Shown: positions 1,425 to 26,753 of the stretch, piece by piece
Layout of the letters: each line of letters opens with the position of its first letter
How positions within the stretch are numbered: position 1 is the stretch's first letter
Origin: Candidatus Scalindua sp.
GTDB lineage: Bacteria > Planctomycetota > Brocadiia > Brocadiales > Scalinduaceae
Direction: 5' to 3'
NCBI GenBank assembly: GCA_031316155.1
Contig: JALDRB010000001.1
Coordinates: 309,572 to 341,571, forward strand
Length of the DNA stretch: 32,000 bases
The notes under the pieces: generated by a model
The model's database searches: none
What the model was told of the DNA's origin: nothing
Seen by the model: the letters and a program-made list of their open reading frames with translations, nothing else
Made by a program: the position numbers and the translations under genes

Positions 1425-1438
1425 AAATGGAGGTGTAT

Positions 1439-3013
1439 ATGTTTTGCGGAAAGAGCGTGAATGCTGTTATTATTCTATTTTTTGCAATGCTTATTGGCGT
1501 GTATGGCTGTACCTCTCAACAAAACCAGGTAGTGATGGATGAAATGAGCATTGGGCGAGAAAGACCAAAATACACAGCTCCTGCGAATAGAGAAGAAACG
1601 ATTAGCATGAGGAGTGCAGAAGGATACTCTACGGAAGCTGGATCAAGAAGTGCTATTTCCATAAAAAAAATTGTACCCTCTCAAAGCTTGTTGGGACGGG
1701 TAATCGATGTTGTTATTAACGTAACGAACCTTAGCGACTCAACGGTTAATGATATTGAGGTGTTCGAAACCATTCCACAGAAATTTGACGTAAAAAGCTC
1801 CGAACCTCTTATGAAGGGAGATGTATTGTCGGGAAGAGCACATTGGCTTCTTGGTGATTTGGGACCCGGAGAAACAAAGGTAATTCGAGTTTCGGGTACG
1901 CCTGCAGCTTTAGGGGTCTTAGAGTTCTGCTGCACAGACGTGGCTTATAAATTACCCTTAAACATTTGTAAGACTACAAACGTTGTACAGCCAGAATTGA
2001 TGATTACGAAGCAGATACCGTCTGATGTTATAATTTGTGATCCAATACCAATAAAGATTGTGGTTACCAACACAGGAACAGGTACGGCTCAGAATGTGAA
2101 GATTAAAGAACCTCTCCCTTCAGGCATGAAGTCGCAGAGAGGTGAAGACTACGTGGAATATGATGTTGGCTCTTTGCAGTCAGGTGAATCACGAGAGGTT
2201 GTCTTCAACGTTAAGGCTGACCGAATCGGCACATTTGATAACTCAGCAACCGTTGTTGCTGATGATGGTTTGAGTGCTAATTCTAACACAACCACTACAG
2301 TCGTAAGTCAACCTGTTCTCTCTATCACCAAAACAGGGCCAGCGATACGGTATATTGGCCGGAATATCACGTATAACATCGTAGTAACCAATGAGGGCAA
2401 TGGGCCGGTCTTTAATACAGTTGTTGATGATTCCATTCCCACAAACACCTCAATGGTAAGAGCCAGTGACGGAGGTACTTTAACCGGAAAAGGCGTATTG
2501 TGGCATTTGGGTACTTTGCAGCCAAGGGAATCCAGAGAGGTAAGTGTGACTGTTCGGGCAGATAGTTTGGGAAAGGCTGAAAACTGTGCAGTCGTCAGTG
2601 GCGAATGTGCTGATGCAGTAAAAGATTGCGCTGTTACAGAAGTGGTTGGGATTTCTGCTATTCTCCTTGAAGTTGTCGATATCCAGGATCCAATCGAGAT
2701 CGGCGCAAGTGAGACGTATGAGATTACGGTAACCAATCAAGGTTCAGCGACTGGTACAAATATTACAATTGCATGTACTTTGGAATCAGGTACCATGGAA
2801 TATATTTCTTCTGATGGTCCAACGGCCGGATCATCTGTAGGCAACAGAATAATATTTGAACCCCTGCCTGCTTTAGGACCGAAAGAGAGGGCAATCTGGA
2901 GGATACATGTAAAGGCTGTTGGTAAAGGAGATGTGAGGTTTAAGGCTACTTTGAACAGTGATCAAATAGATCGAGTTGTGGAGGAAACAGAGTCAACGAA
3001 CTTCTACCAATAA
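1439..3013 (+). CDS. DUF11 (conserved repeat domain) lipoprotein, OmcB-like
   Basis: The ORF is open from 1427, but GGAGG at 1429-1433 sits 5 nt before ATG 1439, so 1439 is the likelier start. It has an N-terminal signal peptide with a lipobox-like GVYGC. Three or more repeats of the DUF11 pattern are visible (ITKQIP...IKIVVTNTGTGTAQNV, ITKTGP...YNIVVTNEGNGPVFNT, YEITVTNQGSATGTNI). Confidence 0.8.
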   Translation: MFCGKSVNAVIILFFAMLIGVYGCTSQQNQVVMDEMSIGRERPKYTAPANREETISMRSAEGYSTEAGSRSAISIKKIVPSQSLLGRVIDVVINVTNLSDSTVNDIEVFETIPQKFDVKSSEPLMKGDVLSGRAHWLLGDLGPGETKVIRVSGTPAALGVLEFCCTDVAYKLPLNICKTTNVVQPELMITKQIPSDVIICDPIPIKIVVTNTGTGTAQNVKIKEPLPSGMKSQRGEDYVEYDVGSLQSGESREVVFNVKADRIGTFDNSATVVADDGLSANSNTTTTVVSQPVLSITKTGPAIRYIGRNITYNIVVTNEGNGPVFNTVVDDSIPTNTSMVRASDGGTLTGKGVLWHLGTLQPRESREVSVTVRADSLGKAENCAVVSGECADAVKDCAVTEVVGISAILLEVVDIQDPIEIGASETYEITVTNQGSATGTNITIACTLESGTMEYISSDGPTAGSSVGNRIIFEPLPALGPKERAIWRIHVKAVGKGDVRFKATLNSDQIDRVVEETESTNFYQ

Positions 3014-4660: not shown

Positions 4661-5602
4661 ATGCTTAAGATAATTTTCTTAATAACAGTGTTGGTTAATC
4701 TAGTTTTTTTTAGTTTCCTACATCGTGTTGCTGTGGCTCTGGAAAGACACGAACAAGAAAGGGAAGATATTGTTATCCGGGAACTAGTTGTTAATAATGA
4801 TAATAAATACAGAACTGTTATCTGTAAAAATGAAGAAGAAGGAATTAAAGAATTAAGGAGTCTTGTTGATACTTCGAGAATAGAAGAGTGTTGGATATTT
4901 TTGCCTCCGGAAGAAAGGTGGGTTGAAATAGGAAGTGGAGCAGTTCCTGAAACGAGGGTAGATGACCATTTTATCACGAAAGTGGGAGTTGATGTCCAGT
5001 TTATGGAAAGTGTAATGGCAAAAAATAATTCTCTTATCGTGTATCACATCCACCCTACATATAGTCTTTTTCTTGAACACCAAATGAGGAAATGCAGAGA
5101 AAACGGCCAACCTATGAAGGAAAAAGAGGTAAAAAAAGCAAGAACTGAATTTTTAATAAAAAGGGCTTATCCCTCAGGGCAAGATTTAGGGAACATGATA
5201 GAAAACACAATGGAGTTTATTAAAAAAAATCCCGGTGGAAATATAATGTTCAAGATATGTTCACATTACGGAATAACCGAATGTTATTTGACTAAAGAGG
5301 GAAAGATATACTTTATCTGTGATAACTATCCAGATCTTTTTGAAAAAATCGTTAGAATTTGCATGAAAATGCATCGCGATGCGGCTCTTGCAGTGGAAAA
5401 TTATGAACAAAAAATCCGAAAAAAAGTAAATTTACTATACAGGATTAAGATGCACTCTAAACAAAAAAAAAGAAGTTTTTTGAGAGCTAATAACGGTTCC
5501 AAGTTCGAGATTGACCCATTTACTTTGATTAACAAAGCATTTGAAGCGATGAGTAGCGATTATCTAAAAGTGGCTTTTACACCTTACACACAAAGAGAGT
5601 AA
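4661..5602 (+). CDS. Hypothetical membrane-anchored protein (313 aa)
   Basis: A long ORF with an N-terminal TM helix (IIFLITVLVNLVFFSFL). I recognise no family with confidence. It contains YHIHP (res 128-132) and YPSGQD (res 170-175); see findings. Confidence 0.55.
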   Translation: MLKIIFLITVLVNLVFFSFLHRVAVALERHEQEREDIVIRELVVNNDNKYRTVICKNEEEGIKELRSLVDTSRIEECWIFLPPEERWVEIGSGAVPETRVDDHFITKVGVDVQFMESVMAKNNSLIVYHIHPTYSLFLEHQMRKCRENGQPMKEKEVKKARTEFLIKRAYPSGQDLGNMIENTMEFIKKNPGGNIMFKICSHYGITECYLTKEGKIYFICDNYPDLFEKIVRICMKMHRDAALAVENYEQKIRKKVNLLYRIKMHSKQKKRSFLRANNGSKFEIDPFTLINKAFEAMSSDYLKVAFTPYTQRE

Positions 5603-5636
5603 AGAGGGGAGAACTAACTCGTGAATGAATACATGA

Positions 5637-6269
5637 TTAAAAATCTTCCAGATATTCTGGGTTTTTACTAGCGTACAAAATATGGATTATATTCTTCATT
5701 TCTTTAGTGACTTGATAGCGTGTATCAAATACTGTCTTCAAAGACAATGAAATTTCTGTCTTTTCCGTTTCCCATATTGATTTATAGCTAAGGTGGTTGG
5801 GATCGGAAGGAAATTCCGGGCGCTTTTGAAATCTTTCGTCTTTCCATGTTTCATCTTCAGAGACAGGAGCTCCATATTTTCGTGCCAAAATGTTCCTGAG
5901 CTTATAATATATATCAATGTAGGAATTCTTTTTTTCGTATTCCTTTCTAAAAGAATATTCTGATCCCACAAGACTATCGTTAAGGAAGAAATAACTCATT
6001 TGGACATCCATCTCCGCAACTTTCTCATTATATACGATTACTTCATCAGCCACGAGACCTGTATAGCTTTCATTTATCTTCTTCTCTGTTTGTATTCTTG
6101 CTGATTCGCTCTCACTGGCTTTGACTTCATTTTTTGTCATTCCCCACCTAGTCTTACGGAAATCGAATGAAGTTGCTCCTTGGTCATCGGAAAAACAAGC
6201 CGTATGATATAACAAAATTGTGCATACTAAAAAAGTAATTGGGATGCATTGTCGCAAAAGAATTTTCAT
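5637..6269 (-). CDS. Hypothetical secreted protein or lipoprotein (210 aa), last gene of the lipid operon
   Basis: ATG 6269-6267 directly abuts the TAA (6272-6270) of the upstream radical SAM gene (TAAATG). It has a signal peptide (ITFLVCTILLYHTAC). Confidence 0.65.
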   Translation of the reverse strand: MKILLRQCIPITFLVCTILLYHTACFSDDQGATSFDFRKTRWGMTKNEVKASESESARIQTEKKINESYTGLVADEVIVYNEKVAEMDVQMSYFFLNDSLVGSEYSFRKEYEKKNSYIDIYYKLRNILARKYGAPVSEDETWKDERFQKRPEFPSDPNHLSYKSIWETEKTEISLSLKTVFDTRYQVTKEMKNIIHILYASKNPEYLEDF

Positions 6270-7736
6270 TTAACTTACGGTAACTCCAGTTTCTGCTGGC
6301 ACCGTTACAGAACTACTCTTATACCAATCCTGATAATAATCCCCAGAATCATAAAGTTTCTGCAAATTTTCCAGTACCTGTTGAAAGACCTGTTGCCAAT
6401 CGGAACCAACCCTGAAACCAAACATAGCGTTGCGTTTTCCGTGTCTTGTGCTGCCGATAGTTTTGGCTGATTTCCTAAAGCGCTGTCTCAGATTGTCGCC
6501 AGCATACAGATGGTCATACATATATTGCATGCCCTCAATAAAATCTTCCAATGTCATATCTACAAACCTGTGCACCACATGCGCCGTGTCGTAATATTTC
6601 CAATCTTCTGGATAATTCTTACGAAAAATCCTCTTTTCAGCATTTAATCTGTGGTAGAGTGCAGTTTGAGGAAAAGGACAATTAATACCAAAGGTCAAGA
6701 CATCGATATTGTTCTCCAAGACAAATTCTGTCATTTTTTTAAACGAATCCTTGTTATCTCCATCTGCTCCCAAGACGATAGAACCCCAAACTATGAGTCC
6801 GTGGTCATGAATCTTTTGAATACAGTCAAAATAACTATCAGTCCCAAGTCTTAGATTTACCTTTTTGTTCATCTTCTCCAAGACTGCTTCATTTGTTGAT
6901 TCTATTCCACAAAGAAAGCCAAAATTTCCGCTCTTAGCCATCAAATCCAGCGCTTCAGCATCCTGAGAGATGTTGAGGGCCGTAAATCCAAGCCAGTCCT
7001 TCTGGATCCCCCTTTCGATCATTCCACGCCAGAGGCTCTTTGCTCTGTTTGCAGAGTTTTTGCTATGGCCGTAAAAATTGTCTTCAGCAAACATGAGGCC
7101 CTTGTAATCGGTGGCTTCCATTTCATCCAAGACATCTTCGTATGGTCTTTCACGGTATTTTTTCCCTTGAAAGGTTGGAACGCTACAGAAATCACAGTAA
7201 TTTGGGCATCCCTTTGTGGTGACAATTGAAGAGAACTTATAATTGTATTTTTTCTTCATGAATTCCCTGTTGGGAAAAACATTTTTCATTTCTGATAATG
7301 CAGGTAGCCCTCCATTATAAACTTTTTTAAGCTGGCCATTCTCAAAATCCTTAATGACTTGAGGCCACAGGGCTTCTGCCTCACCGGTGAAAATCGCATC
7401 AACGTATCGAGATGCTTCGTTAGGCATTACGGATGCATGGATCCCGCCCATTATTACCGTCATTCCTCTTTTTCTGCATACCTCGGCAATCTTGTAAGCC
7501 CTGGCAACTTGATATGTAACAGAGGTTATACAAACGAGATCCACATTGTCAAAGGTGAGGTTATCATTTTCGTCAATAGCCAGTTCCATATTTTCGTCTA
7601 TAATATCGAACTCCCAATCTCCTGGTGTTAAAGCCGCAATATATGCCAGATTTAGAGGCATCTGGACTATAACCGAAATACTCTCTTCGCCATGTCTCCC
7701 CGGAGGGTGTGGATTGATAAGCATCATTTTTCTCAT
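6270..7736 (-). CDS. B12-binding (class B) radical SAM protein
   Basis: The CxxxCxxC cluster motif is present (GCPNYCDFCSV). The N-terminal region is B12-binding-domain-like (LVCITSVTYQVARAYKIAEVCRKRGMTVIMGGIHAS). AGGAGG lies 8 nt upstream of ATG 7736. Confidence 0.9.
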   Translation of the reverse strand: MRKMMLINPHPPGRHGEESISVIVQMPLNLAYIAALTPGDWEFDIIDENMELAIDENDNLTFDNVDLVCITSVTYQVARAYKIAEVCRKRGMTVIMGGIHASVMPNEASRYVDAIFTGEAEALWPQVIKDFENGQLKKVYNGGLPALSEMKNVFPNREFMKKKYNYKFSSIVTTKGCPNYCDFCSVPTFQGKKYRERPYEDVLDEMEATDYKGLMFAEDNFYGHSKNSANRAKSLWRGMIERGIQKDWLGFTALNISQDAEALDLMAKSGNFGFLCGIESTNEAVLEKMNKKVNLRLGTDSYFDCIQKIHDHGLIVWGSIVLGADGDNKDSFKKMTEFVLENNIDVLTFGINCPFPQTALYHRLNAEKRIFRKNYPEDWKYYDTAHVVHRFVDMTLEDFIEGMQYMYDHLYAGDNLRQRFRKSAKTIGSTRHGKRNAMFGFRVGSDWQQVFQQVLENLQKLYDSGDYYQDWYKSSSVTVPAETGVTVS

Positions 7737-7748
7737 TTTATTCTCCTC

Positions 7749-9161
7749 CTAATTATTTAAAATCATACTCGCCACTCTCCATCCAGAGGACACAACTGCA
7801 CATATCCCTGGTCCAGGATTTGTCCAGTGTCCAGCCAGAAAAAGATTCCTGAAAGGTGTTGTATGCCGCAGCCTGTTCGACCATGTTTGGTCTACGGTAA
7901 CAGCCCAGCCATAAGCAGCGCCTTTTGAGTTAAGCGTATAGCGTTCTAAAGTCCTGGGTGTGCCCATTTCCATAACGTCAATGTGGTTCTGAATATTCGG
8001 TAAAAATGTTTCAAGATAACGTATGGTATACTGCTTCTTCTTTTCTTTAAAGATATTCCAGTCTTCTATTTCATCAAAACGCTCTTTTATGGATACAACA
8101 ACCGTAATTATCTGTTTATTGTCTGGGGAGAGGCTTGCATCAGCATGTGTTGGTACAGAAATATAAAACCAGCCGTTGTCGGCAAAACTCATGTCTCTTG
8201 AAGTGTGATAGAATCCTCTCTTTAAGCCTTTTAAATCGATTCTGCTGTCAAGTCCTAAATATAACAAGAAAAACGAACCACTTCCCTTCATCTTTCTGAT
8301 TTTGTGAAGGTATGATTCTTCGATTTCTTGATTATCTATTAAGGTAAAAAACAACTGTAACGGGTCTATGTTCGAAACGAAATTATCAGCAAAAAATTCC
8401 TCCCCTTTGTCTGTTATAACTCCTTTTGCAAACGTATTTTTCGTACTGATCTTCTTAATCGTAGAAGATAACATAATCTGGCCACCATAGTCAATAAATT
8501 TTTGAGCAATTCTGTCAGTGAAATTTTGGGTACTGCCTACTGGGTAATAAGCTCCGTCTTTGAGATAGTTAACCAGCATCTGACACATACCAATTGCTGA
8601 AGCCTCATGAGGTGGCGAACCAATATAGCCCCACTGTGCTGACAATACCATTTTAAGTCTTTCATCGGTAAAATACATATCCAGCATTTCCTTGTAAGTC
8701 AGGTCTTGGTATTTTGATAACAATTTGCTCTTTCCTGTGCTGACCGTGGATCGGTACAATCCCACAAACTCTTTGAAAAAAACTGGTATGGTTTTATTCT
8801 CAGATGCAAATTGTTGTGTTAACAGCTGAACGTAATCATCTAGTTCCGCAGGCACATCCAGAGAAAATGTTGGGAAATGGATACTATCCATTGGGTCAAG
8901 TCGCAAAAACCGGATGTTTATGTCGAGTTCACTGAGACATCTGCCAACTATGCCCCACTTTCCACATCCGCCAATATGATGAACTGCAGCATCGAAAATG
9001 AATCCTTTCCTTTTAAAAGAAGTGCAATAGCCTCCGGGTATATGGTGTTGTTCTAGTATCAATACTTTTTTCCCGTTTTTGGCTAAGAAAGCTCCACAAA
9101 TTAAGCCTGCTATTCCTGCGCCCATTATGATAACATCGTATTTTGATTCTTTAACATTCAT
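7749..9161 (-). CDS. Phytoene desaturase (CrtI)-like FAD-dependent oxidoreductase
   Basis: It has a Rossmann dinucleotide motif (YDVIIMGAGIAGLICGAFLAKNGKKVLILEQHHIPGG) and CrtI-family length and C-terminus (LFLAGHWTNPGPGI). The ORF is open to TTG 9197; the first ATG is at 9161 (MNVKESKYD). Confidence 0.85.
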   Translation of the reverse strand: MNVKESKYDVIIMGAGIAGLICGAFLAKNGKKVLILEQHHIPGGYCTSFKRKGFIFDAAVHHIGGCGKWGIVGRCLSELDINIRFLRLDPMDSIHFPTFSLDVPAELDDYVQLLTQQFASENKTIPVFFKEFVGLYRSTVSTGKSKLLSKYQDLTYKEMLDMYFTDERLKMVLSAQWGYIGSPPHEASAIGMCQMLVNYLKDGAYYPVGSTQNFTDRIAQKFIDYGGQIMLSSTIKKISTKNTFAKGVITDKGEEFFADNFVSNIDPLQLFFTLIDNQEIEESYLHKIRKMKGSGSFFLLYLGLDSRIDLKGLKRGFYHTSRDMSFADNGWFYISVPTHADASLSPDNKQIITVVVSIKERFDEIEDWNIFKEKKKQYTIRYLETFLPNIQNHIDVMEMGTPRTLERYTLNSKGAAYGWAVTVDQTWSNRLRHTTPFRNLFLAGHWTNPGPGICAVVSSGWRVASMILNN

Positions 9162-9257
9162 CAGGCTTGAAACGTAACGATTTGGTTTCAGTCGCAACTG
9201 ATTTTAAAACCGTCACCATATATCTGGTCAACAATTTACTTCATTCATTTTGCAGTA

Positions 9258-10499
9258 CTATTCGTTTGAATATTTTGAGATGATTATGGATGAAATATTA
9301 CCTGTATCAGAAAAAGCGTTGATCAGCACATTATTTACCTCTAGCTCTCTGCTTTTATTCGGAACAAAATCTAAATCGCAGTTCTCATCTTTTTCCTGAT
9401 AATTGATTGTTGGCGGGATAACTCCATTGTTAATTGCCATGATACTGGCAACACACTGCATAGCCCCTGATGCATCAAGGCATTCACCACTCATTGACTT
9501 TATTGCGCTTATGGGGGCCTGTTTTGCGAAATCACCAAAGTACTCTTCGATAACCCTGGTTTCCATGATATCTCCCGTTTCACTTGAGTTTGCGCATGCG
9601 GATATATAAGAGATATCGTTACTTTTAAGTTTAGCATCTTTCATCGCCACGGAAATGCATCTAGCACCCTCTTCTGTGTCGAGCAAGTCATGGTTGATTT
9701 TCTTGGGATTAAAGGTGTTTCCATATCCTTTTATTTCAGCATAAATTTTTGCGTCCCTCTTTAATGCGTCTTCCAGCCTTTCGATCACTAGTAATGCAGC
9801 GGTTTCTCCTAAGATAAAGCCATTCCGTCTCTTATCAAATGGAGCGGAGATCTCAAGAGATCCATTCTTGCTGCCTGAAAGAATACCAGATTTGTACGCG
9901 CCCCAGAAAATGTCAGGGGTGAGCCCATGTACCCCTCCAGCTAATACAGCTTTCACTCTTTTCAGCTTGAGGAAATCAGAAGCGTAAATTATCGCATCCA
10001 GTCCGCTCGTAACACCAGTTGAAATAGTTGAGTTAAGACCGGTAGCTTTACAAAATATTGAAGCTCTACTTGCAGGGGCATTCAGAACTGTATTCGGGAA
10101 ATCCATGGGATTTACAAAACTTGGTCCCTCTTTTAATGCTTCTAAATCAAATGAGCTGATACTGTCTATGCTGCCATATGTCGAGCCGATCACAATTCCC
10201 AAATCTTCTTCTCCATAAATTTCATGGGTGATTTTGGCATCTTCCATTACCAGCTTTGCTGCTGAAGATGCCAGAAGCGAGGTTCTGTCAATGTGTCGTA
10301 TCCCCTTCTTGCCCAGGTATTCCTTTGCGTCAAAGTTTGATATCTCTCCTGCTTTTTTACTTTTATATCGGGAAACATCAAATAGCGTAACATCCTTTAT
10401 ACCGGAATTACCGTTTGTCAAATTGTGCCAAAATTCGTCTTTGTTTAAGCCGAGAGGAGACAAAATACTCATTCCCGTTATTACCAAGCGGATACTCAT
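9258..10499 (-). CDS. Beta-ketoacyl synthase-like protein lacking the Cys-His-His triad (CLF-like)
   Basis: It has the KS fold throughout and aligns to the neighbouring FabF. The FabF motifs TACAAG / SAHGTGT / GHTMGAAS read TGVTSG / SACANSS / GECLDASG here. The ORF is open to TTG 10541; ATG at 10499 gives the canonical MSIRLVITGM start. Confidence 0.85.
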   Translation of the reverse strand: MSIRLVITGMSILSPLGLNKDEFWHNLTNGNSGIKDVTLFDVSRYKSKKAGEISNFDAKEYLGKKGIRHIDRTSLLASSAAKLVMEDAKITHEIYGEEDLGIVIGSTYGSIDSISSFDLEALKEGPSFVNPMDFPNTVLNAPASRASIFCKATGLNSTISTGVTSGLDAIIYASDFLKLKRVKAVLAGGVHGLTPDIFWGAYKSGILSGSKNGSLEISAPFDKRRNGFILGETAALLVIERLEDALKRDAKIYAEIKGYGNTFNPKKINHDLLDTEEGARCISVAMKDAKLKSNDISYISACANSSETGDIMETRVIEEYFGDFAKQAPISAIKSMSGECLDASGAMQCVASIMAINNGVIPPTINYQEKDENCDLDFVPNKSRELEVNNVLINAFSDTGNISSIIISKYSNE

Positions 10500-10646
10500 A
10501 GTTTTTATTAATCCATCAGAAAAATGTTTTTCACTAAACAAAACGTTAACGGAGTTAATTAAGTACCGTTAACTTTGATACATGCAACTGGTATGATAAA
10601 GGTAATAATCTCTTTTTTTGGTTAGAGGACTGAGTAATGGTAACCT

Positions 10647-11867
10647 TTACCCGGAAAACTTCTTTAACACAAGACAGCTATTGTTGCCGCCAAAGGCATA
10701 TGCGTTATTCAATGCTATGTTTATTTCCATTTCGCGTTTAACATTTGGCACGAAATCCAAATCGCATTCAGGATCCTGAGTCTCAAAATTTATTGTGGGT
10801 GGAACAATACCTTCTTTGATAGCCAAAGCGCATGCAATGGCCTCTATAGCACTGGCAGCTCCCATGGTATGTCCAATCATGGATTTAATAGAACTGATAG
10901 CCAGCCGTTTCGCATGTTCTCCGAAAACCTTCTTGATTGAAATAGTTTCTGCCTTGTCGTTGGCTACGGTCCCGGTACCATGTGCGCTTATATGTTGAAC
11001 ATCCCCAGGTTTTATGTTCGCATCTCTTAATGCCTTTTCCATTGCAGAAACAACACCATTGCCGTCCGGGTGAGGAATGGTAATGTGATATCCATCGCAA
11101 CTTAATCCGTAACCTAAAATTTCTGCATAGATATTTGCGTTTCTTGCCAAGGCGTCTTCTAAAGATTCCAGCACCAGCATTCCGGCTCCTTCACCAATTA
11201 GCATTCCCTTTCTGTTCTTGTCAAAAGGCTGACAGATTTCCGGTGCAATAGCATTTAGCCTTCCAAATCCAACGTAAGCTACTTTTGAAAATGGATCTGA
11301 GCCTCCGGCGAGCATAATATTTGCTCTACCCAGTCTTATTAAATCGCATGCATAGCCAATAGCATAATTCCCTGCCGCACACGCTGTTGGGATTATTGTG
11401 GTTGGCCCCTTAAAGCCAAATTCAATTGAGATATTGGAAGGTATGTTAATGCATGGGTGACTTAAAAAGAGGTGTGGGTCGATTTTGTCTTCACCATTCT
11501 CAAATCGTAAAAGATTTACCTTCTCAAGTATCTGAATTTCACCCGCAGTTGTTCCGATAGAAACACCAACGCTTTCAGGATCTATATCTTTTGTATAAAT
11601 CTGAGAGTCATCCAAGGCAAGTTTAGTAGCAGCAATTGCAAATTGTGATCCCTTACCGATTTTCCGGTTTGAACCGTTACTCACATAATCCTCATACTTG
11701 AAGCCCTTTACCTCGCAACCTCGGTGTACTTTGAATATAGACGTATCGAAGGATTTTACTTCCGATACCCCGGATTTACCGGAAATCAAGGCATCCCAGA
11801 AAATCTCTTTTCCGCATCCTATGGGAGATATCACTCCAACACCAGTTATTACAATTCTTTTATCCAT
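10647..11867 (-). CDS. fabF: Beta-ketoacyl-ACP synthase II
   Basis: The N-terminus is [17 protein letters not shown]. The active-site Cys ([12 protein letters not shown]) and both His residues ([20 protein letters not shown]) are present, as is the C-terminal [15 protein letters not shown]. Confidence 0.95.
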
Positions 11868-12021
11868 GAAACTTCATTCTCAAATTTCTGATTCTTTCAC
11901 CTGCACACACATCGAAAGCTCTTTGCAGTGCGAGTATACACGTTTGAAGCGTTGCGTGGTATTAATGATCATGTATAACTGCGCTCCGAAAAAGCAGTTG
12001 TTCTTATACTGTCTATCTTGC

Positions 12022-12471
12022 TTACTGCATTAAAGATTCTTTTTCTGTAACCCCAAAACTTAATGTTGCCTTCGAAACAATCTTTTCTCCAACCTTCGCT
12101 ACACCCCTTACAATTGCAGCAGTTGAAATAACTTTTTCAGTGTTGATCTCTAAGAGTAGCTGGTCGCCCGGAAAAACAGGTTTTGAAAAACGAACATTGG
12201 CTGAAGCCAATAGAAATACCTTGTCTTTGCCCTTGTCTGAATTAAAGCTCTTCTGGAAGAGAATTATCGAGGCTTGCGCCATGGCCTCTAAAATAAGAAC
12301 TCCCGGCATTATGGCAAAATCAGGAAAGTGTCCGGCAAAAAACGCTTCATTGCCTGAAATGTTTTTCAAACAAACAATTTTGCTTTCTTTTTGATATTCA
12401 ATAACCCTATCGATAAATAGGAACGGGAATTTTTGAGGAACCAGCTTCCTTACTTCCTCAAAGCCTAACAT
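12022..12471 (-). CDS. fabZ: 3-hydroxyacyl-ACP dehydratase
   Basis: It carries FPFLFIDRV and GHFPDFAIMPGVLILEAMAQ (catalytic His and Glu context). The ORF is open to TTG 12495; ATG at 12471 gives a typical N-terminus. Confidence 0.9.
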   Translation of the reverse strand: MLGFEEVRKLVPQKFPFLFIDRVIEYQKESKIVCLKNISGNEAFFAGHFPDFAIMPGVLILEAMAQASIILFQKSFNSDKGKDKVFLLASANVRFSKPVFPGDQLLLEINTEKVISTAAIVRGVAKVGEKIVSKATLSFGVTEKESLMQ

Positions 12472-12639
12472 TGTTGAATGCCTTTCGATGTTCAATTGTC
12501 TTAATATACGGATCAGTTACTTTAAGAACGACCAGTGTTTTAAAGGTGTACAAGTGCCTCTTGCATGACCTGGTTACGTAATGAACTTTTATAGCGAGCC
12601 GTTACGTTCACTTGGTGAGTTGATTAGGTCTATAAAAAA

Positions 12640-12909
12640 TTAGGTTTTTGCATTTCCCTCAATTGTTGATTTTGTCATCTCAATTGTGGCGTTTAGTGAA
12701 GTAATATCAACTAGCTTTTCTTCCGGGATCTGTATCTTGAATTTTTTTTCAATAAGCGCCAGAATTTCCAATGCTAATAAGGAATCTATTTCTAAATCTT
12801 TAAAAAAATCAGCGTCTCTTTTCTCCCATATTTCATTCTCGTCTAACTCGGTTACTTCTGCCACAATTGATGTAACCTCTTTTTCTATATTATCAACAGC
12901 CAATATCAT
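12640..12909 (-). CDS. acpP: Acyl carrier protein (dedicated, operon-leading)
   Basis: An 89-aa protein with the phosphopantetheine site DLEIDSLLALEI. GGAGG (12915-12911) is only 1 nt from ATG 12909 but 7 nt from the in-frame TTG at 12903, so the true start may be 12903. Confidence 0.9.
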   Translation of the reverse strand: MILAVDNIEKEVTSIVAEVTELDENEIWEKRDADFFKDLEIDSLLALEILALIEKKFKIQIPEEKLVDITSLNATIEMTKSTIEGNAKT

Positions 12910-13077
12910 ACCTCCTTATAAAACAGTAATTATGGAAAGTTACAATAAAACGAATTTAGAATTTAGAAAACGATATAATAATATGAACATACCGTTATAA
13001 GGCTCGCTACTGTTCGAATTATAGGGTAGTTAGCGTAAAATTCAATACCATTTAACATAAAGAAAAATTTGAATGGA

Positions 13078-13106
13078 AAAATAACAAACTTACCCTGAGA
13101 TGTCAA
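13078..13106 (-). promoter_or_regulatory. Candidate sigma70 promoter for the ACP operon
   Basis: The minus strand reads TTGACA (13106-13101), a 17-nt spacer, then TATTTT (13083-13078), about 170 nt upstream of the ACP start. Confidence 0.35.
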
Positions 13107-13120
13107 TAACAATCTTGTTT

Positions 13121-13142
13121 GAAATGAGAATATTCTCATTTC
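13121..13142. promoter_or_regulatory. Perfect 22-bp palindrome (possible operator or hairpin)
   Basis: gaaatgagaatattctcatttc is its own reverse complement. It ends 14 nt upstream of the candidate -35 at 13106-13101. Confidence 0.4.
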
Positions 13143-13152
13143 AAGTTATACA

Positions 13153-13175
13153 AAAACCATTACGAGGTGAGTATA
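13153..13175 (-). repeat. Intergenic repeat family, 5' module only (copy D)
   Basis: The minus strand reads TATACTCACCTCGTAATGGTTTT, which matches copies A (15154-15132) and B (24937-24959) at 20-21 of 23 positions. It is preceded on the minus strand by TTGGCA (13214-13209), an 18-nt spacer, TAATAT (13190-13185) and then 9 nt. Confidence 0.45.
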
Positions 13176-13254
13176 AACAAAATGATATTATGTAATTCAT
13201 AGTTTTCCTGCCAAAGTCCTATTGCTTCAGGTAAAGAGTCCGTACGTTTCAAAA

Positions 13255-14076
13255 TTATCTGCAGTTGTACCATAACGTAATAACAATATTGGGTATGTCC
13301 CATAAAAATTCTGTTGAGATAAATTCTCCCATTTCGTCTAAAGGGAGTCTGACCTGTCTGGTTTGTCCTTTTTTAATACCACCTATTTCCCTATTAATGA
13401 TAGGGATAGTTTTTAACGGGTTTACCGTATCTGACTGAGGTAGTCGATCAGAAAAATTCGGATTATTAAAGTATTCCATTAATTTCTCAATAGCAGAGTT
13501 TCTTTTTGTTGAGGCAAATATCACTATTGCTCCTTTTCCGTAATTTTTCCCAAAGGGTAACCATTTCTTCATTGGAGGCACAAAATATGTCAAATTTGCT
13601 GTCAAAGGGTTTGTCTGTGCACTGAACTTCCTTCGTGGAAAAAGTGGAAAGATGATGCCTGTTGGTTCAATCCTGAATATGTATACAAAACAGGTTCTTC
13701 TTGGGGTAAAAGATATTTTACCTTTATCTCTCCTCTGCACAACATCTCCATTATTAATTTTTACAGCAAGTGTTTTGTTGTCAACAACCTTCATCTTCAG
13801 AACGTCAAATTCTAAAAAGCTTATTTCCTCTTCTCTAGTGGTAAATCCTTTTGCTTGAAGAAGAATATCATAGAGTTTCTTTGCATTTGAAGCATATGGG
13901 CTGCCATAATTTTTCTTCAAATGTATGAGAAAGGACTTAAGGGAAGAGTTTTGGGAATTGTTTACAGGAGTATATGATGCTTCTGTGAAGTTTTCCTTCG
14001 CGGCCATTCCAAGAGCGGTTACCATTACAATAATCAACAGGTATTCAGTAAGTCTGCGAACTTTTACGGGATACAA
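13255..14076 (-). CDS. Secreted hypothetical protein, DUF4384-like C-terminal half
   Basis: The ORF is open to 14157 but would then overlap the proC 3' end by 70 nt. TTG at 14076 gives MYPVKVRRLTEYLLIIVMVTALGMAA, a signal peptide. The segment CFVYIFRIEPTGIIFPLFPRRKF...GKGAIVIFAS resembles the DUF4384 pattern. Confidence 0.6.
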   Translation of the reverse strand: MYPVKVRRLTEYLLIIVMVTALGMAAKENFTEASYTPVNNSQNSSLKSFLIHLKKNYGSPYASNAKKLYDILLQAKGFTTREEEISFLEFDVLKMKVVDNKTLAVKINNGDVVQRRDKGKISFTPRRTCFVYIFRIEPTGIIFPLFPRRKFSAQTNPLTANLTYFVPPMKKWLPFGKNYGKGAIVIFASTKRNSAIEKLMEYFNNPNFSDRLPQSDTVNPLKTIPIINREIGGIKKGQTRQVRLPLDEMGEFISTEFLWDIPNIVITLWYNCR

Positions 14077-14086
14077 TTTATTTACT

Positions 14087-14905
14087 CTATTTCGAAAAGG
14101 TTCTTCCAAGTTTTTTTGATTTTTTAGTTGCAGCCTCAACTGCATCAATGAGTGCACTTCTCATGCCGCCTTTTTCTAAAGCATGTATACCTTCAATTGT
14201 TGTTCCTCCAGGAGAGGATACAAAATCCTTTAGTTTACCTAAATGTATGTTGGATTCGAGTACCATTTTTGCAGCACCGAGAACTGTCTGTGCAGCAAGC
14301 GTTGTTGACATATCTCTGGGTAAACCCATCTTTACCCCACCGTCTGACAGTGCTTCGATAACCATATAGACATAAGCAGGTCCGCTTCCGCTTAAACCTG
14401 TTATTGCGTCAAGAAGGTGCTCTTCCAATAGATAAGCTTTTCCAACGGTCTTTAGGATATCGCAAACGAAAACCCCGTCATCACGGGTGGCATTTTTCCC
14501 CAATGAAAAACCTGCAGCACCTTCACCAACGAGACATGGAGTGTTTGGCATTACCCTGATAACCCGGCAGTTTCTGTTTAAAATCGATTCTATGAAACCC
14601 GTAGGGATTCCGGCCGCTATAGAAACAACAAGGTGTCTAACCGTTATTTCATTCTTCAATTCTTCAAGGATATGTCCTATTGTATTTGGTTTCGTGGCAA
14701 GAACGAGAATGTCAGAACAGGATGCTACTTTGTTGTTTTCCTGTGTGGTTTTAATCCCCGTTTCTCTCTCTAATATCTGGCATCGATTGTTGTCTATGTC
14801 ACTGGCCATAATTGTGTCCTTGGTAGAGAGCTTTGCATGTAAGATACCTTTTATTAAGGCCTCTCCCATCTTTCCACCACCAATAAAGCCTATTTTTTCT
14901 TTCAG
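14087..14905 (-). CDS. proC: Pyrroline-5-carboxylate reductase
   Basis: ProC family features run throughout (PNTPCLVGEGA, GSGPAYVYMVIEALSDGGV, SPGGTTIEG). The Rossmann motif IGFIGGGKMG lies upstream of the first ATG (14869). The only SD-compatible start is CTG 14905; see findings. Confidence 0.9.
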   Translation of the reverse strand: MKEKIGFIGGGKMGEALIKGILHAKLSTKDTIMASDIDNNRCQILERETGIKTTQENNKVASCSDILVLATKPNTIGHILEELKNEITVRHLVVSIAAGIPTGFIESILNRNCRVIRVMPNTPCLVGEGAAGFSLGKNATRDDGVFVCDILKTVGKAYLLEEHLLDAITGLSGSGPAYVYMVIEALSDGGVKMGLPRDMSTTLAAQTVLGAAKMVLESNIHLGKLKDFVSSPGGTTIEGIHALEKGGMRSALIDAVEAATKKSKKLGRTFSK

Positions 14906-15205: not shown

Positions 15206-15814
15206 ATGAATGTTACCTTTTTCAGATGGATACCGCTTCTTTATTTCAAAATTTTTCATAGAGTTAGGTTTTATGGGTGTGAAAACGTTCCTGACTCAGG
15301 GCCTGTTGTAATTGCCCCGAACCATATCAGTTTTTATGATCCGATAATAGTTGCGATTGGTATAAAAAGAGACATGGAATTTATGGCATGGGACAGACTT
15401 TTTTCAATACCTATCCTGAATAGAGTAATACGTTTTTTTGGTGCCTTTCCAGTTGAGTTGACAAAGTTTGATAAGAGTGCATATATTAATGCCCTCAAGG
15501 CCTTGAATAACGGGCACGCGTTAATGCTCTTTCCCGAGGGGAGGAGAAGTATAGACGGAAAAATTAAAGAGTATAAACTCGGGCTTGCACGCATAGTTTT
15601 TAAGACAAATGCCCAAATAGTTCCAGTTACGATTGTTGGTGCTTATGCGGCGTGGCCAAAGCATAAAAAACTGCCACGCCCAAAAAGAATACTCGTTTAC
15701 TATCACAAACCTATGACAATTGAAAAACGCAAGTTTCAAGATATGAAAACCAGAAATGAATTCTTTGCTAAAGTAACAAACCAGGTAATGGAAGTTATTG
15801 GTAGTAAGTTGTAA
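15206..15814 (+). CDS. plsC: 1-acyl-sn-glycerol-3-phosphate acyltransferase
   Basis: The HX4D motif (APNHISFYDP) and the FPEGRRS motif are present. The size is typical of the PlsC family. Confidence 0.85.
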   Translation: MNVTFFRWIPLLYFKIFHRVRFYGCENVPDSGPVVIAPNHISFYDPIIVAIGIKRDMEFMAWDRLFSIPILNRVIRFFGAFPVELTKFDKSAYINALKALNNGHALMLFPEGRRSIDGKIKEYKLGLARIVFKTNAQIVPVTIVGAYAAWPKHKKLPRPKRILVYYHKPMTIEKRKFQDMKTRNEFFAKVTNQVMEVIGSKL

Positions 15815-22278: not shown

Positions 22279-23755
22279 AATCTAATTCTTTAAAATCATT
22301 CAGGTGGTTAAATTTGTCCATATCTTCCAGGAATATCTCACTTTCCGTCCTTCGTAAGGAACGGGTAGCATCCTTTATGCGAAAATATGGTCTTAACAAT
22401 AAGACCCTGAGGAGGTTGACAAGCGGAAACCTTGACTTAAAGGATGGAGTTGTTTTAAAAAATGTGGAGTATTTGCGTTTGTACTTCCATTTTAAGAACT
22501 GTAACTCCTCAGAACTGAGATGTTTCGTGCGCACATTGGCCCAAAAACCATTATACTTGCTATAGTCTTCCCTATTGGAAACAAGGTTTGCCTTAATAAG
22601 TTCCTCACGGATGCCGGTTTTAGGATATGGTGTAATTATCTGATCACTAATGAAATCGATATTGTGTCTGTCGAAAAATTCATAGTTCTGTGCAATATCT
22701 TCTTCCTTATCATCCTGATTTCCAATAATCATACCTCCTATAATAAGCATATCTTTATCGTGGAGAAGTTCAACTGCTTTCTTTATGCTCTCCAGAATAT
22801 TGCCTTTCTTCATCATCTTGAGATTACGGGTGGAAACATTTTCAATACCCAGAAAAACAAATTCAAATCCCGCACGTGCCATTTTCGTTGCCAGGGTCTT
22901 TGAGGATGCGATTCCCGTGCAGGATGTTTGCACAATATAACGAATATCGTTATGCCCCTCACTCGTGATAGTATCACAGAGTTCCTCAAATCTCTTTGGG
23001 TTTAAGGTGATATTGTCGTCAGCAATTGCTAAATATTTTGCACCCTCTTTCTTTGCATGAGAAATGTCTTTGATAACACGTTCGATTTCATAGGCCCTGA
23101 ATTTTCTACCATACATATGGTTCATGCTGCAAAAGTTGCAGGGCATCGTACAGCCACGGGAGGTTTCTATGATGTCAAGCTGTTTCGCTCCAAAAGAATA
23201 GCCCCTCCAAACCCGATTTGTCCTGTTTGGCAGAGCTATTTTCGAAAGGTCTTCAAGGGGCCGCGGTTGATTATGAATAAATATTCCCTCTTGACGGAAG
23301 GACAGCCCCATCACCTCGCTGAAATTGGCTTTACCTTCAATAGCACTGATTAATTCGCCAAAACTCAGATCACTCTCGCCCCGAAGAATAAAATCGAATG
23401 GGCCATCCTTGTTTTCCTCTCCGATCTCTCTATACATCAGTGTTGCGTGGTAACCACCTAACACAATTTTGATTGAACTGTCCAGGTTCTTGATAAATGC
23501 TGCAATGCGTCTGGCAGTATTAAATTGGAAGCTCATTGCACTAATACCGATAAGTGCAGGATTGTATTCAGAGAGGAGTTTTGTGATGGCTGAGGTTAGT
23601 CTATGCCGGACGAGAATAAGGTCTGCGAGATAGACATCGTGTTCCTTCAGATTCCCAGCGATGGAAGAAATAGCCAGATTGGGAGGTCTCCACCCCTTAA
23701 ATGCCGGTACCATATCTGGCATAGAAAAGAGTAATATCCTCATTTTATTGTGCAT
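22265..23755 (-). CDS. B12-binding (class B) radical SAM protein, second copy
   Basis: The CxxxCxxC motif is present (GCTMPCNFCSM). The N-terminal region is B12-binding-domain-like (ALIGISAMSFQFNTARRIAAFIKNLDSSIKIVLGGYHAT). Confidence 0.9.
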   Translation of the reverse strand: MHNKMRILLFSMPDMVPAFKGWRPPNLAISSIAGNLKEHDVYLADLILVRHRLTSAITKLLSEYNPALIGISAMSFQFNTARRIAAFIKNLDSSIKIVLGGYHATLMYREIGEENKDGPFDFILRGESDLSFGELISAIEGKANFSEVMGLSFRQEGIFIHNQPRPLEDLSKIALPNRTNRVWRGYSFGAKQLDIIETSRGCTMPCNFCSMNHMYGRKFRAYEIERVIKDISHAKKEGAKYLAIADDNITLNPKRFEELCDTITSEGHNDIRYIVQTSCTGIASSKTLATKMARAGFEFVFLGIENVSTRNLKMMKKGNILESIKKAVELLHDKDMLIIGGMIIGNQDDKEEDIAQNYEFFDRHNIDFISDQIITPYPKTGIREELIKANLVSNREDYSKYNGFWANVRTKHLSSEELQFLKWKYKRKYSTFFKTTPSFKSRFPLVNLLRVLLLRPYFRIKDATRSLRRTESEIFLEDMDKFNHLNDFKELDFELH

Positions 23756-25383: not shown

Positions 25384-25408
25384 TTTTTTTTCTCCTTCAT
25401 ATTTAGAT

Positions 25409-25624
25409 TTATGTGTTTTCTTCGAATTTTGATACGTACGCTTCACAAATAAATTCATCTTCACCCAGCTGGTCTAATCTGTTTATTGTGCAGAACTTTT
25501 CCTCTTTCTGGTCATCGTCTTTTCTGCATGTGGTACACAGCGACGGTTTTTCCATGAGATTCGGATTAATCTTTGTTCCGTCATCATCATAAAAACCTCT
25601 GATTTCATCTTCCGGTTTGGCCAT
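25409..25624 (-). CDS. Small acidic Cys-containing protein (71 aa), unknown function
   Basis: ATG at 25624 is preceded by AAGGAAA. It has four Cys residues (CTTC ... C ... C). It lies 25 nt upstream of the SWIB gene on the same strand. Confidence 0.55.
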   Translation of the reverse strand: MAKPEDEIRGFYDDDGTKINPNLMEKPSLCTTCRKDDDQKEEKFCTINRLDQLGEDEFICEAYVSKFEENT

Positions 25625-26723: not shown

Positions 26724-26753
26724 TTGACAAAGTATAAATCTTTAGGCTATATT
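26724..26753 (+). promoter_or_regulatory. Candidate sigma70 promoter of hicBA
   Basis: TTGACA (26724-26729), an 18-nt spacer, then TATATT (26748-26753). The hicB ATG at 26762 is only 8 nt downstream, which implies a leaderless or near-leaderless mRNA. Confidence 0.4.

Follow-up and report, generated by a model that had tools for sequence, protein, structure and literature searches.

A Candidatus Scalindua ortholog of anammox Cluster I, a candidate assembly line for ladderane lipids

The window analyzed here, a stretch of 32,000 nt from a Candidatus Scalindua MAG (GCA_031316155.1, contig JALDRB010000001.1, positions 309,572-341,571 of the forward strand), contains six co-oriented minus-strand ORFs between 12909 and 6270. 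They encode an acyl carrier protein (ACP), FabZ, FabF, a ketosynthase (KS) paralog devoid of the catalytic triad, a CrtI-like flavoprotein and a radical SAM enzyme (rSAM) with a B12-binding domain. Judging from sequence, this locus is the Scalindua ortholog of the anammox ‘Cluster I’, i.e., kuste3603-3608 of Kuenenia stuttgartiensis. We consider it probable that its products make up a private FAS/PKS-like assembly line of type II with two tailoring enzymes, whose end product is a ladderane lipid or a precursor committed to it. The finding as such is not new: Cluster I was proposed for ladderane synthesis in 2009 (Rattray 2009) and has been the main unproven candidate since; Scalindua brodae and Brocadia fulgida possess it as well (Rattray 2009; Javidpour 2016; Dietl 2023; Granatino 2026 preprint). 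Half of the cluster is biochemically characterized in orthologs, and crystal structures from sister species exist for three protein types (amxACP, amxFabZ and the amxFabF2/amxFabFmut heterodimer). The features of the locus are as follows.

12910-13254, minus strand: upstream intergenic region, likely containing the putative operon promoter(s) and the ACP ribosome-binding site
12640-12909, minus strand: amxACP-type dedicated acyl carrier protein, 89 aa (PF00550), phosphopantetheine Ser in LEIDSLLAL
12022-12471, minus strand: amxFabZ-type 3-hydroxyacyl-ACP dehydratase, 149 aa (PF07977), from ATG 12471; the listed ORF reaches TTG 12495
10647-11867, minus strand: amxFabF2-type active ketosynthase, 406 aa (PF00109 and PF02801)
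9258-10499, minus strand: amxFabFmut-type triad-less KS paralog, 413 aa from Met15; the ORF reaches TTG 10541
7749-9161, minus strand: CrtI/phytoene-dehydrogenase (PDH)-like FAD flavoprotein, 470 aa from Met13 (PF01593 and NAD_binding_8); the ORF reaches 9197
6270-7736, minus strand: class-B-type radical SAM enzyme, 488 aa, with a B12-binding-like Rossmann domain, a CX3CX2C barrel and a C-terminal helical DUF4070
5637-6269, minus strand: lineage-specific 210-aa ORF with a hydrophobic N-terminus, abutting the rSAM stop
5648-5660, no strand assigned: terminator-like hairpin (consensus match) with T-rich tails on both strands, between convergent genes at the operon 3' end

All six ORFs of a preliminary description were present, and domain searches agreed with the families it had named; PF00550, PF07977, PF00109/PF02801, PF01593, PF02310 and PF04055, which it had put forward as a check, all matched on the expected ORFs. 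Start codons were chosen by ribosome-binding site and by alignment to crystallized orthologs (FabZ ATG 12471, KS paralog 10499, flavoprotein 9161). We judge the six genes to be real and not chance ORFs, because exact proteins occur in NCBI Ca. Scalindua MAGs (three of the six, namely FabF, the flavoprotein and the rSAM) and orthologous clusters occur at 65 anammox loci. Six-gene colinearity is found at 51 of these; with one exception, the others are interrupted by a contig end or by a split gene. The loci span the Brocadiales (Scalinduaceae, Brocadiaceae, Anammoxibacteraceae, Subterrananammoxibiaceae) and the order Hypogeohydatales. In a tree of the six concatenated proteins, the window falls inside the Scalindua clade with 100% bootstrap. 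The locus matches Cluster I exactly in gene order, domain content and the pattern of catalytic residues, the differences being at species level only, and all published Cluster I sequence hallmarks were found in the window. The kuste3603-3608 assignment of the preliminary description agrees with Fig. 1d of the Granatino 2026 preprint and Table 2 of Javidpour 2016.

The ACP matches PF00550 (E 9e-14), with the expected DSL phosphopantetheine site. It aligns with 148 bits and about 91% identity to 7qv0_D, the ACP in the complex of S. brodae amxACP with amxFabZ. FabZ (PF07977, E 2e-26) aligns to the amxFabZ structures 8ayi and 7qv0_A with 252 bits and about 81% identity; its catalytic His and Glu are present, as are the hallmarks Ile69, Ser96 and Ile115 (S. 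brodae numbering). FabF is complete as described before, with both ketosynthase domains (PF00109, E 1e-44; PF02801, E 1e-41) and intact catalytic Cys163, His296, Lys and His333. Its paralog retains the domains (PF00109, E 2e-35; PF02801, E 2e-23) and carries Val, Cys, Lys and Glu at the Cys, His, Lys and His columns, which bears out the claimed loss of the triad. It aligns from residue 17 to the amxFabFmut heterodimer subunit 9s5h_C with 588 bits. At the Cys column, where Thr was reported for S. brodae, the window protein has Val; among 19 Scalindua-type sequences, Val occurs in nine and Thr in ten. The orthologous FabF2 and FabFmut form a KS/CLF-like heterodimer (Granatino 2026 preprint), which decarboxylates malonyl-ACP and self-primes, and crosslinking favors C6-C8 chains and amxACP. 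By analogy, we regard the paralog as a chain-length-factor-like partner of FabF and not as an independent enzyme.

The FabF, FabZ and ACP domains could also point to a redundant or diverged housekeeping fatty acid synthase operon. This explanation is effectively refuted. As claimed previously, no FabD, FabH, FabG or FabI domain accompanies the genes in any window ORF of at least 120 aa. The ACP scores below every housekeeping-ACP equivalog cutoff in NCBIfam, and FabF reaches 466 bits against the FabF model TIGR03150, under its 494-bit equivalog cutoff. Moreover, amxFabZ dehydrates 3-hydroxyacyl-amxACP up to about C8 but does not accept housekeeping ACP, the canonical FAS of Kuenenia is a separate cluster (kustd1386-1391; Javidpour 2016), and a housekeeping operon would leave the triad-less KS, the flavoprotein and the rSAM out of account.

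The flavoprotein shows PF01593 and NAD_binding_8 domains and the motif GAGIAGL, as anticipated. It scores 146 bits with the crtI_fam model (cutoff 238), the CrtI structure 4dgk matches it at 90 bits, and its ortholog kuste3607 has no CrtI activity (Javidpour 2016). The rSAM matches PF02310 (35.9 bits, cutoff 32.1), PF04055 and DUF4070 and contains the motif CPNYCDFC; its only invariant cysteines among 20 homologs are C177, C181 and C184. An AF2 model (pLDDT 87) predicts a class-B fold, in line with the earlier class-B assignment with a B12-binding-like N-terminus, and its nearest folds are AprD4, MgmA, TsrM, TokK, CysS and OxsB. AprD4, the closest of these, uses no cobalamin. Membership of the rSAM in the NCBIfam family "rSAM_ladder_B12" was rejected (94 bits, cutoff 360). 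Both findings weigh against the ladderane reading.

With the chosen ATG starts, the first four spacers in gene order are 168, 154, 147 and 96 nt and the last two are 12 and 0 nt, matching the 96-170-nt, 12-nt and 0-nt spacing given before. The internal spacers of 96-168 nt are unusually long compared to medians of 15-81 nt. Between the flavoprotein stop and the rSAM start lie 12 nt; across 61 loci, the median length of this PDH-rSAM junction is 14 nt. Tight spacing is conserved here and at no other junction of the cluster; the long spacers, like the seventh gene, are particular to the lineage. Thus, of the tight packing claimed for the tailoring genes, the flavoprotein-rSAM part holds and is conserved, while the 0-nt join to the seventh gene is not. 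This 210-aa ORF has no Pfam or NCBIfam match, and a homolog was found at one of 80 loci (Scalindua SCAELEC01; 62% identity, 76 nt past the rSAM). It is probably co-transcribed with the cluster and, on this distribution, appears to lie outside its conserved part. Upstream of the ACP, three sigma-70-like sites matching 10 of 12 positions were found on the minus strand at 13214-13187, 13106-13078 (extended TG) and 13045-13018, although the overall count of such sites is not above shuffled expectation. AAGGAGG lies 5 nt ahead of the ACP ATG, and a GAAAGG ribosome-binding site precedes the FabZ ATG.

From the literature on orthologs, amxACP would carry the intermediates, the heterodimer of FabF2 and its triad-less paralog would self-prime through decarboxylation of malonyl-ACP, and amxFabZ would dehydrate the 3-hydroxyacyl-amxACP up to about C8. 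For the remaining steps we propose that a ketoreductase, for which no gene was found in the window, and an enoyl reductase, if used, would be supplied from elsewhere in the genome; the SDR, FabH or ECH genes borne by sister clusters of other phyla speak for this. The flavoprotein and the rSAM would probably act jointly on a short ACP-bound acyl or enoyl intermediate, through flavin-dependent desaturation or isomerization followed by hydrogen abstraction by a 5'-deoxyadenosyl radical and C-C bond formation. The canonical three-Cys cluster alone and the class-B fold of the rSAM speak for this proposal. The preliminary description implied that a chain would be built, desaturated and then cyclized, which corresponds to the long-chain ‘type a’ route; this is disfavored by the published C6-C8 preference and labelling data, and the authors of the published work favor a ‘type b’ route. 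Given the short-chain preference of both FabZ and the KS heterodimer, the cluster's contribution to the lipid may be limited to its linear C6-C8 part.

This preference also fits a different reading, which we consider unlikely yet worth weighing. Here, the cluster would make a specialized fatty-acyl unit, for example a short chain serving as primer or linker, or an acyl-ACP modified in mid-chain by methylation, desaturation or otherwise, and cyclobutane formation would be encoded elsewhere. The rSAM would be a cobalamin-dependent methyltransferase, as are most class-B enzymes and most of its structural neighbors (MgmA, TsrM, TokK, CysS), the flavoprotein a desaturase or reductase, and the product shared with non-anammox bacteria. 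Methyl-branched fatty acids may occur in anammox biomass. Anaerobic expression of kuste3603-3608 in E. coli gave all six proteins but no ladderane, intermediate or new fatty acid (Javidpour 2016). As the preliminary description had it, no enzyme has been shown to make the cyclobutane ring: in vitro ring formation is not reported in reviews and preprints up to 2026. However, the anammox clusters group apart, in a clade with 100% support that tracks every known anammox order, and no candidate shared lipid is known. Among the FAS-type clusters of Kuenenia, Cluster I ranks second in expression (Javidpour 2016), and this high expression, together with the private ACP/FabZ recognition, argues for a major membrane lipid. 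Thus, the end product in anammox bacteria is most likely a ladderane lipid or its committed precursor, on the basis of phyletic distribution and expression and not of a demonstrated reaction.

The same six-gene order was also found in non-anammox MAGs, which likewise favors a shared acyl unit. These sister clusters come from Blastocatellia (SMAG_U9992), other Acidobacteriota (Acidobacteria 13_1_40CM_2_60_7, MFD06085), ‘delta proteobacterium’ (MFD00822, MFD04944), Spirochaetales (SRP128890_co1_175) and Planctomycetota (Bin8). They show the ACP-FabZ-KS-(triad-less KS)-PDH-rSAM order of the window with PDH adjoining the rSAM, at 36-75% protein identity and 50-72% GC. As in the window, their FabZ carries the bulky tunnel residue and lacks the basic patch, and the catalytic triad is intact in the KS but lost in its partner. 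Usually they are extended by an SDR ketoreductase and FabH, or by more rSAM paralogs and a second KS/CLF pair; fusion to KR/FabH genes and to a kuste2802-2805-like module is frequent, and ECH genes are attached as well. Because of these MAGs, the published claim that the cluster is exclusive to anammox is contradicted, and the chemistry would not necessarily be ladderane-specific. Six-gene synteny, which the preliminary description had named as evidence against a ladderane role if common in bacteria that make no ladderanes, therefore does occur outside anammox, but it is rare, more divergent and confined to uncultured hosts.

Other anammox rSAM/KS modules also favor the reading as an acyl unit. 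The kuste2802-2805 module, which is not in the window, comprises a PPTase, a B12-rSAM, FabF and a non-canonical FabB, and lacks an ACP, FabZ and flavoprotein of its own. Its rSAM is a 51% identical paralog of the cluster rSAM, and here, too, an active KS is accompanied by a partner that lacks the triad (Phe/Asn/Lys/Glu). Two genomes, one Anammoxibacter-like (L083) and the other CSMAG_693, have the module beside Cluster I, and KS/CLF-rSAM modules with a similar Phe-type signature adjoin sister clusters in Blastocatellia and ‘delta’ MAGs.

A KS/CLF pair, a private ACP and a FabZ-type dehydratase are also the core of polyene-type type II PKSs, so that a highly reducing pathway akin to type II polyketide synthesis, like those for polyenes, aryl polyenes or cispentacin, has to be weighed; its product would be a small secondary metabolite and not a membrane lipid. 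We regard this as improbable. NCBIfam side matches to cispentacin AmcB, AmcE and AmcF and ApeI/ApeP-like Pfam matches on one sister-cluster dehydratase were obtained, and loci of this kind are classified as BGCs by antiSMASH across many phyla, but all Amc and Ape matches are far under the family cutoffs. Moreover, the window holds no thioesterase, aminotransferase, glycosyl/lipid-anchoring gene or exporter, and anammox-wide conservation with high expression would be unusual for an accessory metabolite.

Returning to the favored ladderane assembly line, ishigamide Iga11/Iga12 and cispentacin AmcF-AmcG (Hibi 2023) combine, as here, an active KS with an inactive partner, a private ACP and FabZ-type dehydratases. 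These highly reducing type II PKS systems operate without a radical SAM or CrtI-like enzyme, and the window proteins score far below their family cutoffs. With cispentacin, machinery of this type is known to form a small carbocycle while the chain is bound to an ACP, albeit a five-membered ring made by polar chemistry. The rSAM shares its class-B architecture with the non-methylating cobalamin-type radical SAM enzymes BchE cyclase, OxsB and HpnJ and with the Jaw5 cyclopropanase, its similarity to the BchE, HpnJ and PhpK models being weak (76-94 bits). Among these enzymes there are precedents for the formation or rearrangement of rings and for radical ring closure while a polyketide is growing.

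Our ORF and domain searches found all six minus-strand ORFs that the preliminary description had placed at 12909-6270, on one strand and in the order ACP, FabZ, FabF2, FabFmut, flavoprotein (PDH) and B12-radical SAM enzyme (rSAM). The ACP carries a PP-binding domain with the motif LEIDSLLAL and FabZ a FabA/FabZ hot-dog dehydratase domain; the flavoprotein is of the amine-oxidase/CrtI type with the motif GAGIAGL, and the rSAM combines a B12-binding domain with a radical SAM core (CPNYCDFC) and DUF4070. Both ketosynthases (KS) are full-length. Aligned with those of related loci (139 ketosynthases in all), the first retains Cys163/His296/Lys/His333 and is intact, whereas the second shows Val/Cys/Lys/Glu at the triad columns and lacks the triad, as had been claimed. 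For three of the listed ORFs the true start most likely is an ATG a little further in: for FabZ, ATG 12471 with a GAAAGG ribosome-binding site, from which the numbering fits S. brodae amxFabZ; for the KS paralogue, 10499, with the alignment to 9s5h_C opening at residue 17; and for the flavoprotein, 9161, one NCBI annotation giving 470 aa. From these revised starts the successive spacers measure 168, 154, 147, 96, 12 and 0 nt, in agreement with the earlier values. That an operon of ACP, FabZ and FabF genes is a housekeeping duplicate is a reading to which we give next to no credence. No FabD, FabH, FabG or FabI domain occurs in any window ORF of at least 120 aa, which bears out their reported absence, and the ACP (47.6 bits, cutoff 70.45) and FabF (466 bits, cutoff 494) fall short of equivalog level, so that a housekeeping FAS II operon was rejected.

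The locus is an orthologue of the KustE3603-3608 arrangement, the 'Cluster I' of the literature; a well-known candidate was thus re-identified, not discovered, and its interpretation as a candidate ladderane cluster was right. Rattray et al. 2009 (PMC2649909) were the first to propose Cluster I for ladderane synthesis, Javidpour et al. 2016 (PMC4790861) expressed it in E. coli, and Dietl et al. 2023 (PMC10139942) and Granatino et al. 2026 (bioRxiv 10.64898/2026.05.19.726425) characterised parts of it. The window ACP matches the crystallised 7qv0_D with 148 bits (~91% identity), FabZ matches the crystallised 8ayi and 7qv0_A with 252 bits (~81% identity), and the KS paralogue matches 9s5h_C with 588 bits. 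amxFabZ is told from canonical FabZ by Ile69, Ser/Thr96 and Val/Ile115 (Dietl et al. 2023, PMC10139942); the window FabZ has Ile, Ser and Ile at these positions and is of the amx type, the E. coli FabZ reference in this alignment being a hand-entered sequence whose Gly/Lys/Arg pattern fits the description by Dietl et al. 2023. The ketosynthases (C/H/K/H and V/C/K/E) likewise show the Cluster I pattern of a Cys-His-His KS next to a paralogue with Cys replaced by Val/Thr and His by Asn/Cys/Glu. Three of the six proteins, FabF, the flavoprotein and the rSAM, are identical to Candidatus Scalindua MAG proteins in NCBI encoded on a 430-kb contig. Moreover, a concatenated six-protein tree (neighbour joining, 200 bootstraps) places the window in the Scalindua clade beside Scalindua sp. 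SCAELEC01 with 100% bootstrap support. Judging from these exact matches and this placement, the host is an anammox bacterium; the window itself contains no hydrazine synthase.

To survey the cluster, one genome of each GTDB species was searched with an rSAM profile built from 20 homologues; it matched 169 relatives, and the best 80 loci were retained. At 65 of these best 80, the rSAM is at least 68% identical to that of the window. They derive from the Brocadiales lineages Scalindua, Brocadia, Kuenenia, Jettenia, Loosdrechtia, Anammoxibacter and Subterrananammoxibius and from Hypogeohydatales-type MAGs, among them JP1; HZS and HDH have been reported in Hypogeohydatales. All six genes stand in order at 51 of the 65 anammox loci. 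The other 14 comprise twelve cut by a contig end, one with a split flavoprotein gene and a solitary additional rSAM (L050) from a MAG that has the full cluster too.

Further lone rSAM paralogues (L070-L073, L075, L079, L080) are 54-58% identical to the cluster rSAM and lack neighbouring FAS genes; at least five of them come from MAGs in which a separate contig bears the full cluster. Near Cluster I, Brocadiaceae and Kuenenia (L022-L063) conserve a second FabZ-like gene that the Scalindua window lacks. It lies ~4-8 kb downstream of the rSAM on the opposite strand, is 28-32% identical and has the signature His/Glu/Thr/Arg/Arg.

The surroundings of the six genes in the window include the following features.

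1427-3013 (+), DUF11-repeat/CARDB surface-type protein, flanking the region
5637-6269 (-), seventh ORF of 210 aa, directly after the rSAM stop
13255-14157 (-), DUF4384 protein, flanking the region upstream of the ACP
15206-15814 (+), PlsC-type acyltransferase (PF01553)
19612-22278 (-), ORF of 888 aa with a GlpX-type fructose-bisphosphatase domain
22265-23755 (-), second B12-binding rSAM of 496 aa
25051-25464, SWIB-domain protein
26762-27251, two small overlapping ORFs, a HicB/HicA-like pair by eye
27404-30526, type I restriction R subunit
within 25400-31966, a RhuM-like fragment and a RecG-C/HATPase_c_4 protein

Upstream of the ACP lie the DUF4384 gene and proC, with positions conserved only in Scalindua SCAELEC01. 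A link to lipids is possible for the PlsC-type acyltransferase, whose gene and that of the ACP are 2.3 kb apart on opposite strands; at E<1e-10 none of the other fetched loci yielded a homologue. The second rSAM has BchE as its best model (186 bits against a cutoff of 481), and its 3' end overlaps the start of the 888-aa ORF by 14 nt, an unusual pairing of a B12-rSAM with a GlpX-type protein. It was rejected as part of Cluster I, being 24% identical to the cluster rSAM, BchE-like and not syntenic elsewhere in anammox loci. The stretch 25400-31966 is mobile or defence-like in appearance, and no tRNAs were found in the window.

The preliminary description had also noted spacers of 96-170 nt between the first four genes and tight packing of the tailoring genes. 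Elsewhere in anammox loci the first four spacers vary widely, with medians of 81, 15, 55 and 36 nt, and the long spacers of the window are thus lineage-specific. RNA elements within them were rejected: there was no Rfam match at E<=1 in 5000-14000 and none at the gathering threshold in the full window, and the four spacers showed no significantly stable structure (MFE z-scores 0.52, 1.12, 0.03 and -1.25). Promoter-like sites (26 seen, 22.8 expected) and terminator-like sites (7 seen, 5.8 expected) did not exceed chance, leaving internal promoters and terminators unsupported. The tight packing held for the flavoprotein-rSAM junction, which has a median of 14 nt (range 8-202 nt, n=61), and failed for the 0-nt junction to the seventh ORF. 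Among the best 80 loci, a homologue of this ORF was found in SCAELEC01 alone (L006), 76 nt downstream of the rSAM. It therefore lies outside the conserved unit and was rejected as a cluster member. As the sole conserved tight junction, flavoprotein-rSAM points to these two enzymes as a functional pair.

For the rSAM, matches to PF04055 (59 bits) and PF02310 (35.9 bits against a cutoff of 32.1) give the class B architecture. Among 20 homologues, C177, C181 and C184 (CX3CX2C) are the only invariant cysteines, and these canonical residues give no evidence for an auxiliary cluster. By sequence there is no close relative of solved structure (best match 50 bits); the AlphaFold model (pLDDT 87, pTM 0.86) retrieved AprD4, MgmA, TsrM, TokK, CysS and OxsB in Foldseek with E-values of 1e-15 to 1e-18. 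AprD4, the top fold match, has a B12-binding-type domain yet is cobalamin-independent, so that cobalamin use by the window rSAM is putative. Its best NCBIfam match, TIGR04072 'rSAM_ladder_B12', was rejected at 93.8 bits against a curated cutoff of 360, which the rSAM paralogues, including the kuste2803-type, and the sister-cluster rSAMs described below also fail. The model captures neither the Cluster I rSAM nor the kuste2803-type paralogue, and its name could mislead automated annotation. The flavoprotein aligns to CrtI (4dgk) with 90 bits and belongs only to the broader PF01593 amine-oxidase fold; the CrtI phytoene desaturase family (TIGR02734) was rejected at 146 bits against a cutoff of 238. 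The kuste3607 orthologue neither complemented crtI nor desaturated phytoene (Javidpour 2016, PMC4790861).

The synteny comparison with non-anammox genomes that the preliminary description had set out as a test went partly against it: the six-gene order recurs in non-anammox MAGs, with proteins 36-75% identical to those of the window. These sister clusters are as follows.

L066 (with L065), Blastocatellia MAG, within the 36-75% identity range of the sister set
L067 and L068, 'uncultured delta proteobacterium', contigs of 1.8 Mb and 382 kb
L074, Acidobacteriota, 382 kb
L077, Planctomycetota Bin8 (non-Brocadiia), 884 kb
L078, Spirochaetales
soil Acidobacteria contigs carrying P0118

L081 and L082 are also among the non-anammox Cluster I-type loci. 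Mis-binned anammox contigs were rejected as the source, because the sister loci have a GC content of 50-72% versus ~40% in the window, the flanks on the Blastocatellia contig encode typical acidobacterial proteins, and four of the MAG contigs span 381 kb to 1.8 Mb, the Blastocatellia contig being shorter. Each sister cluster pairs an intact KS with a triad-less partner. In their FabZs the basic patch is missing and the tunnel position is occupied by Ile or Leu, or in L074 by Ala, instead of glycine. In the concatenated tree, the anammox clusters form one clade, with the Blastocatellia cluster as its sister and the 'delta' clusters branching next, each with 100% support. As judged from these genomes, the anammox-type cluster is a distinct clade, but neither the gene family nor its synteny is confined to anammox bacteria, contrary to the statements of Dietl 2023 (PMC10139942) and Granatino 2026 (bioRxiv 10.64898/2026.05.19.726425) that the cluster is exclusive to ladderane producers. 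Among the best 120 matches of each of two rSAM searches there was no cultured carrier of a sister cluster, nor did Desulfotalea or Geobacter appear among the best 120 of either; the synteny with these genera cited by Rattray 2009 (PMC2649909) concerns other Kuenenia clusters.

Several sister clusters carry additional modules. In the Acidobacteriota clusters the rSAM is followed by an SDR ketoreductase and FabH. The 'delta' and Spirochaetales MAGs have, downstream of the six genes, more rSAM paralogues and another pairing of a KS with a triad-less KS; an SDR is present as well in the 'delta' loci. P0147 lies in the context PPTase-rSAM-KS-KS, as in kuste2802-2805, with an rSAM that shares 51% identity with that of the window. 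For Kuste2805, a Phe/Asn/Lys/Glu signature was reported by Rattray 2009 (PMC2649909). The second triad-less KS of L061 shows the same residues, and those of L065, L067 and L068 show Phe/Ser/Lys/Glu or Phe/Cys/Lys/Glu. In L083, an Anammoxibacter-like 5.1-Mb contig, Cluster I lies back-to-back with rSAM-KS-KS-OYE-type reductase-ECH-SDR-MIase. The joined arrangements are the following.

L083:1035-16040, Cluster I with a kuste2802-2805-type module
L061 (CSMAG_693):86-11234, Cluster I with a kuste2802-2805-type module
Blastocatellia, and 'delta' L067 and L068:5-20139, KS/CLF-rSAM modules with a similar Phe-type signature adjoining sister clusters

The recurrent joining of Cluster I to the kuste2802-2805-type module suggests that they work together, such that the two 'separate' Kuenenia candidate clusters would form one pathway, and that reductive steps missing from the anammox operon are supplied elsewhere in the genome.

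Work on orthologues outlines how such a pathway might run. They have a private ACP (amxACP), FabZ is limited to chains of ~C8 or shorter on amxACP (Dietl 2023, PMC10139942), and the KS/CLF-like heterodimer is self-priming and prefers C6-C8 chains (Granatino 2026, bioRxiv 10.64898/2026.05.19.726425). Ketoreductase and enoyl reductase (KR/ER) would be borrowed from elsewhere in the genome, and the flavoprotein-rSAM pair would act on a short ACP-bound intermediate. Expression of kuste3603-3608 in E. coli gave all six proteins and no new lipid (Javidpour 2016, PMC4790861), neither ladderane production nor cyclobutane ring formation is reported for any Cluster I orthologue, and reviews and preprints to 2026 call the pathway unknown. 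We consider it fairly probable that the operon functions in this way and supplies ladderane synthesis. The occurrence of the family beyond anammox weakens the 'exclusive distribution' argument tying it to ladderanes, and it bears on an alternative in which Cluster I makes a different or more generic acyl unit common to non-anammox bacteria; with the anammox clusters forming their own fully supported clade, we regard this as unlikely, though the weightiest of the alternatives. Mid-chain methyl-branched fatty acids in anammox bacteria would support a methyltransferase reading; no confirmation of such lipids was found in the literature searched.

Ladderanes, chains of fused cyclobutanes under very high ring strain, are used as anammox biomarkers, make membranes proton-tight and are of interest as high-energy fuels. 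How biology builds them is a long-standing open problem, for which the field's consensus candidate is Cluster I. With the window, Cluster I gains another orthologue and the state of knowledge stays as it was; what proved useful besides are the non-anammox sister clusters and the linkage of the modules. The KR, FabH or ECH genes of the sister clusters and the fused kuste2802-2805-type module indicate which extra genes would be worth including in a reconstitution. That the sister-cluster organisms use these enzymes to make ladderane-like lipids, or others with strained rings, is unlikely. If they do, ladderanes would cease to mark anammox bacteria alone, and work on the pathway could turn to lineages beyond the slow-growing, genetically intractable anammox bacteria.

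The likeness of the two ketosynthases to the KS/CLF pair of type II polyketide synthases (PKS) consists of their adjacency and the pattern of active and inactive residues, the heterodimer being known from orthologues alone. We consider it very unlikely that the operon is a type II PKS-like secondary-metabolite pathway. The window KS paralogue has Val at the position where the CLFs of aromatic PKSs are known to carry Gln.
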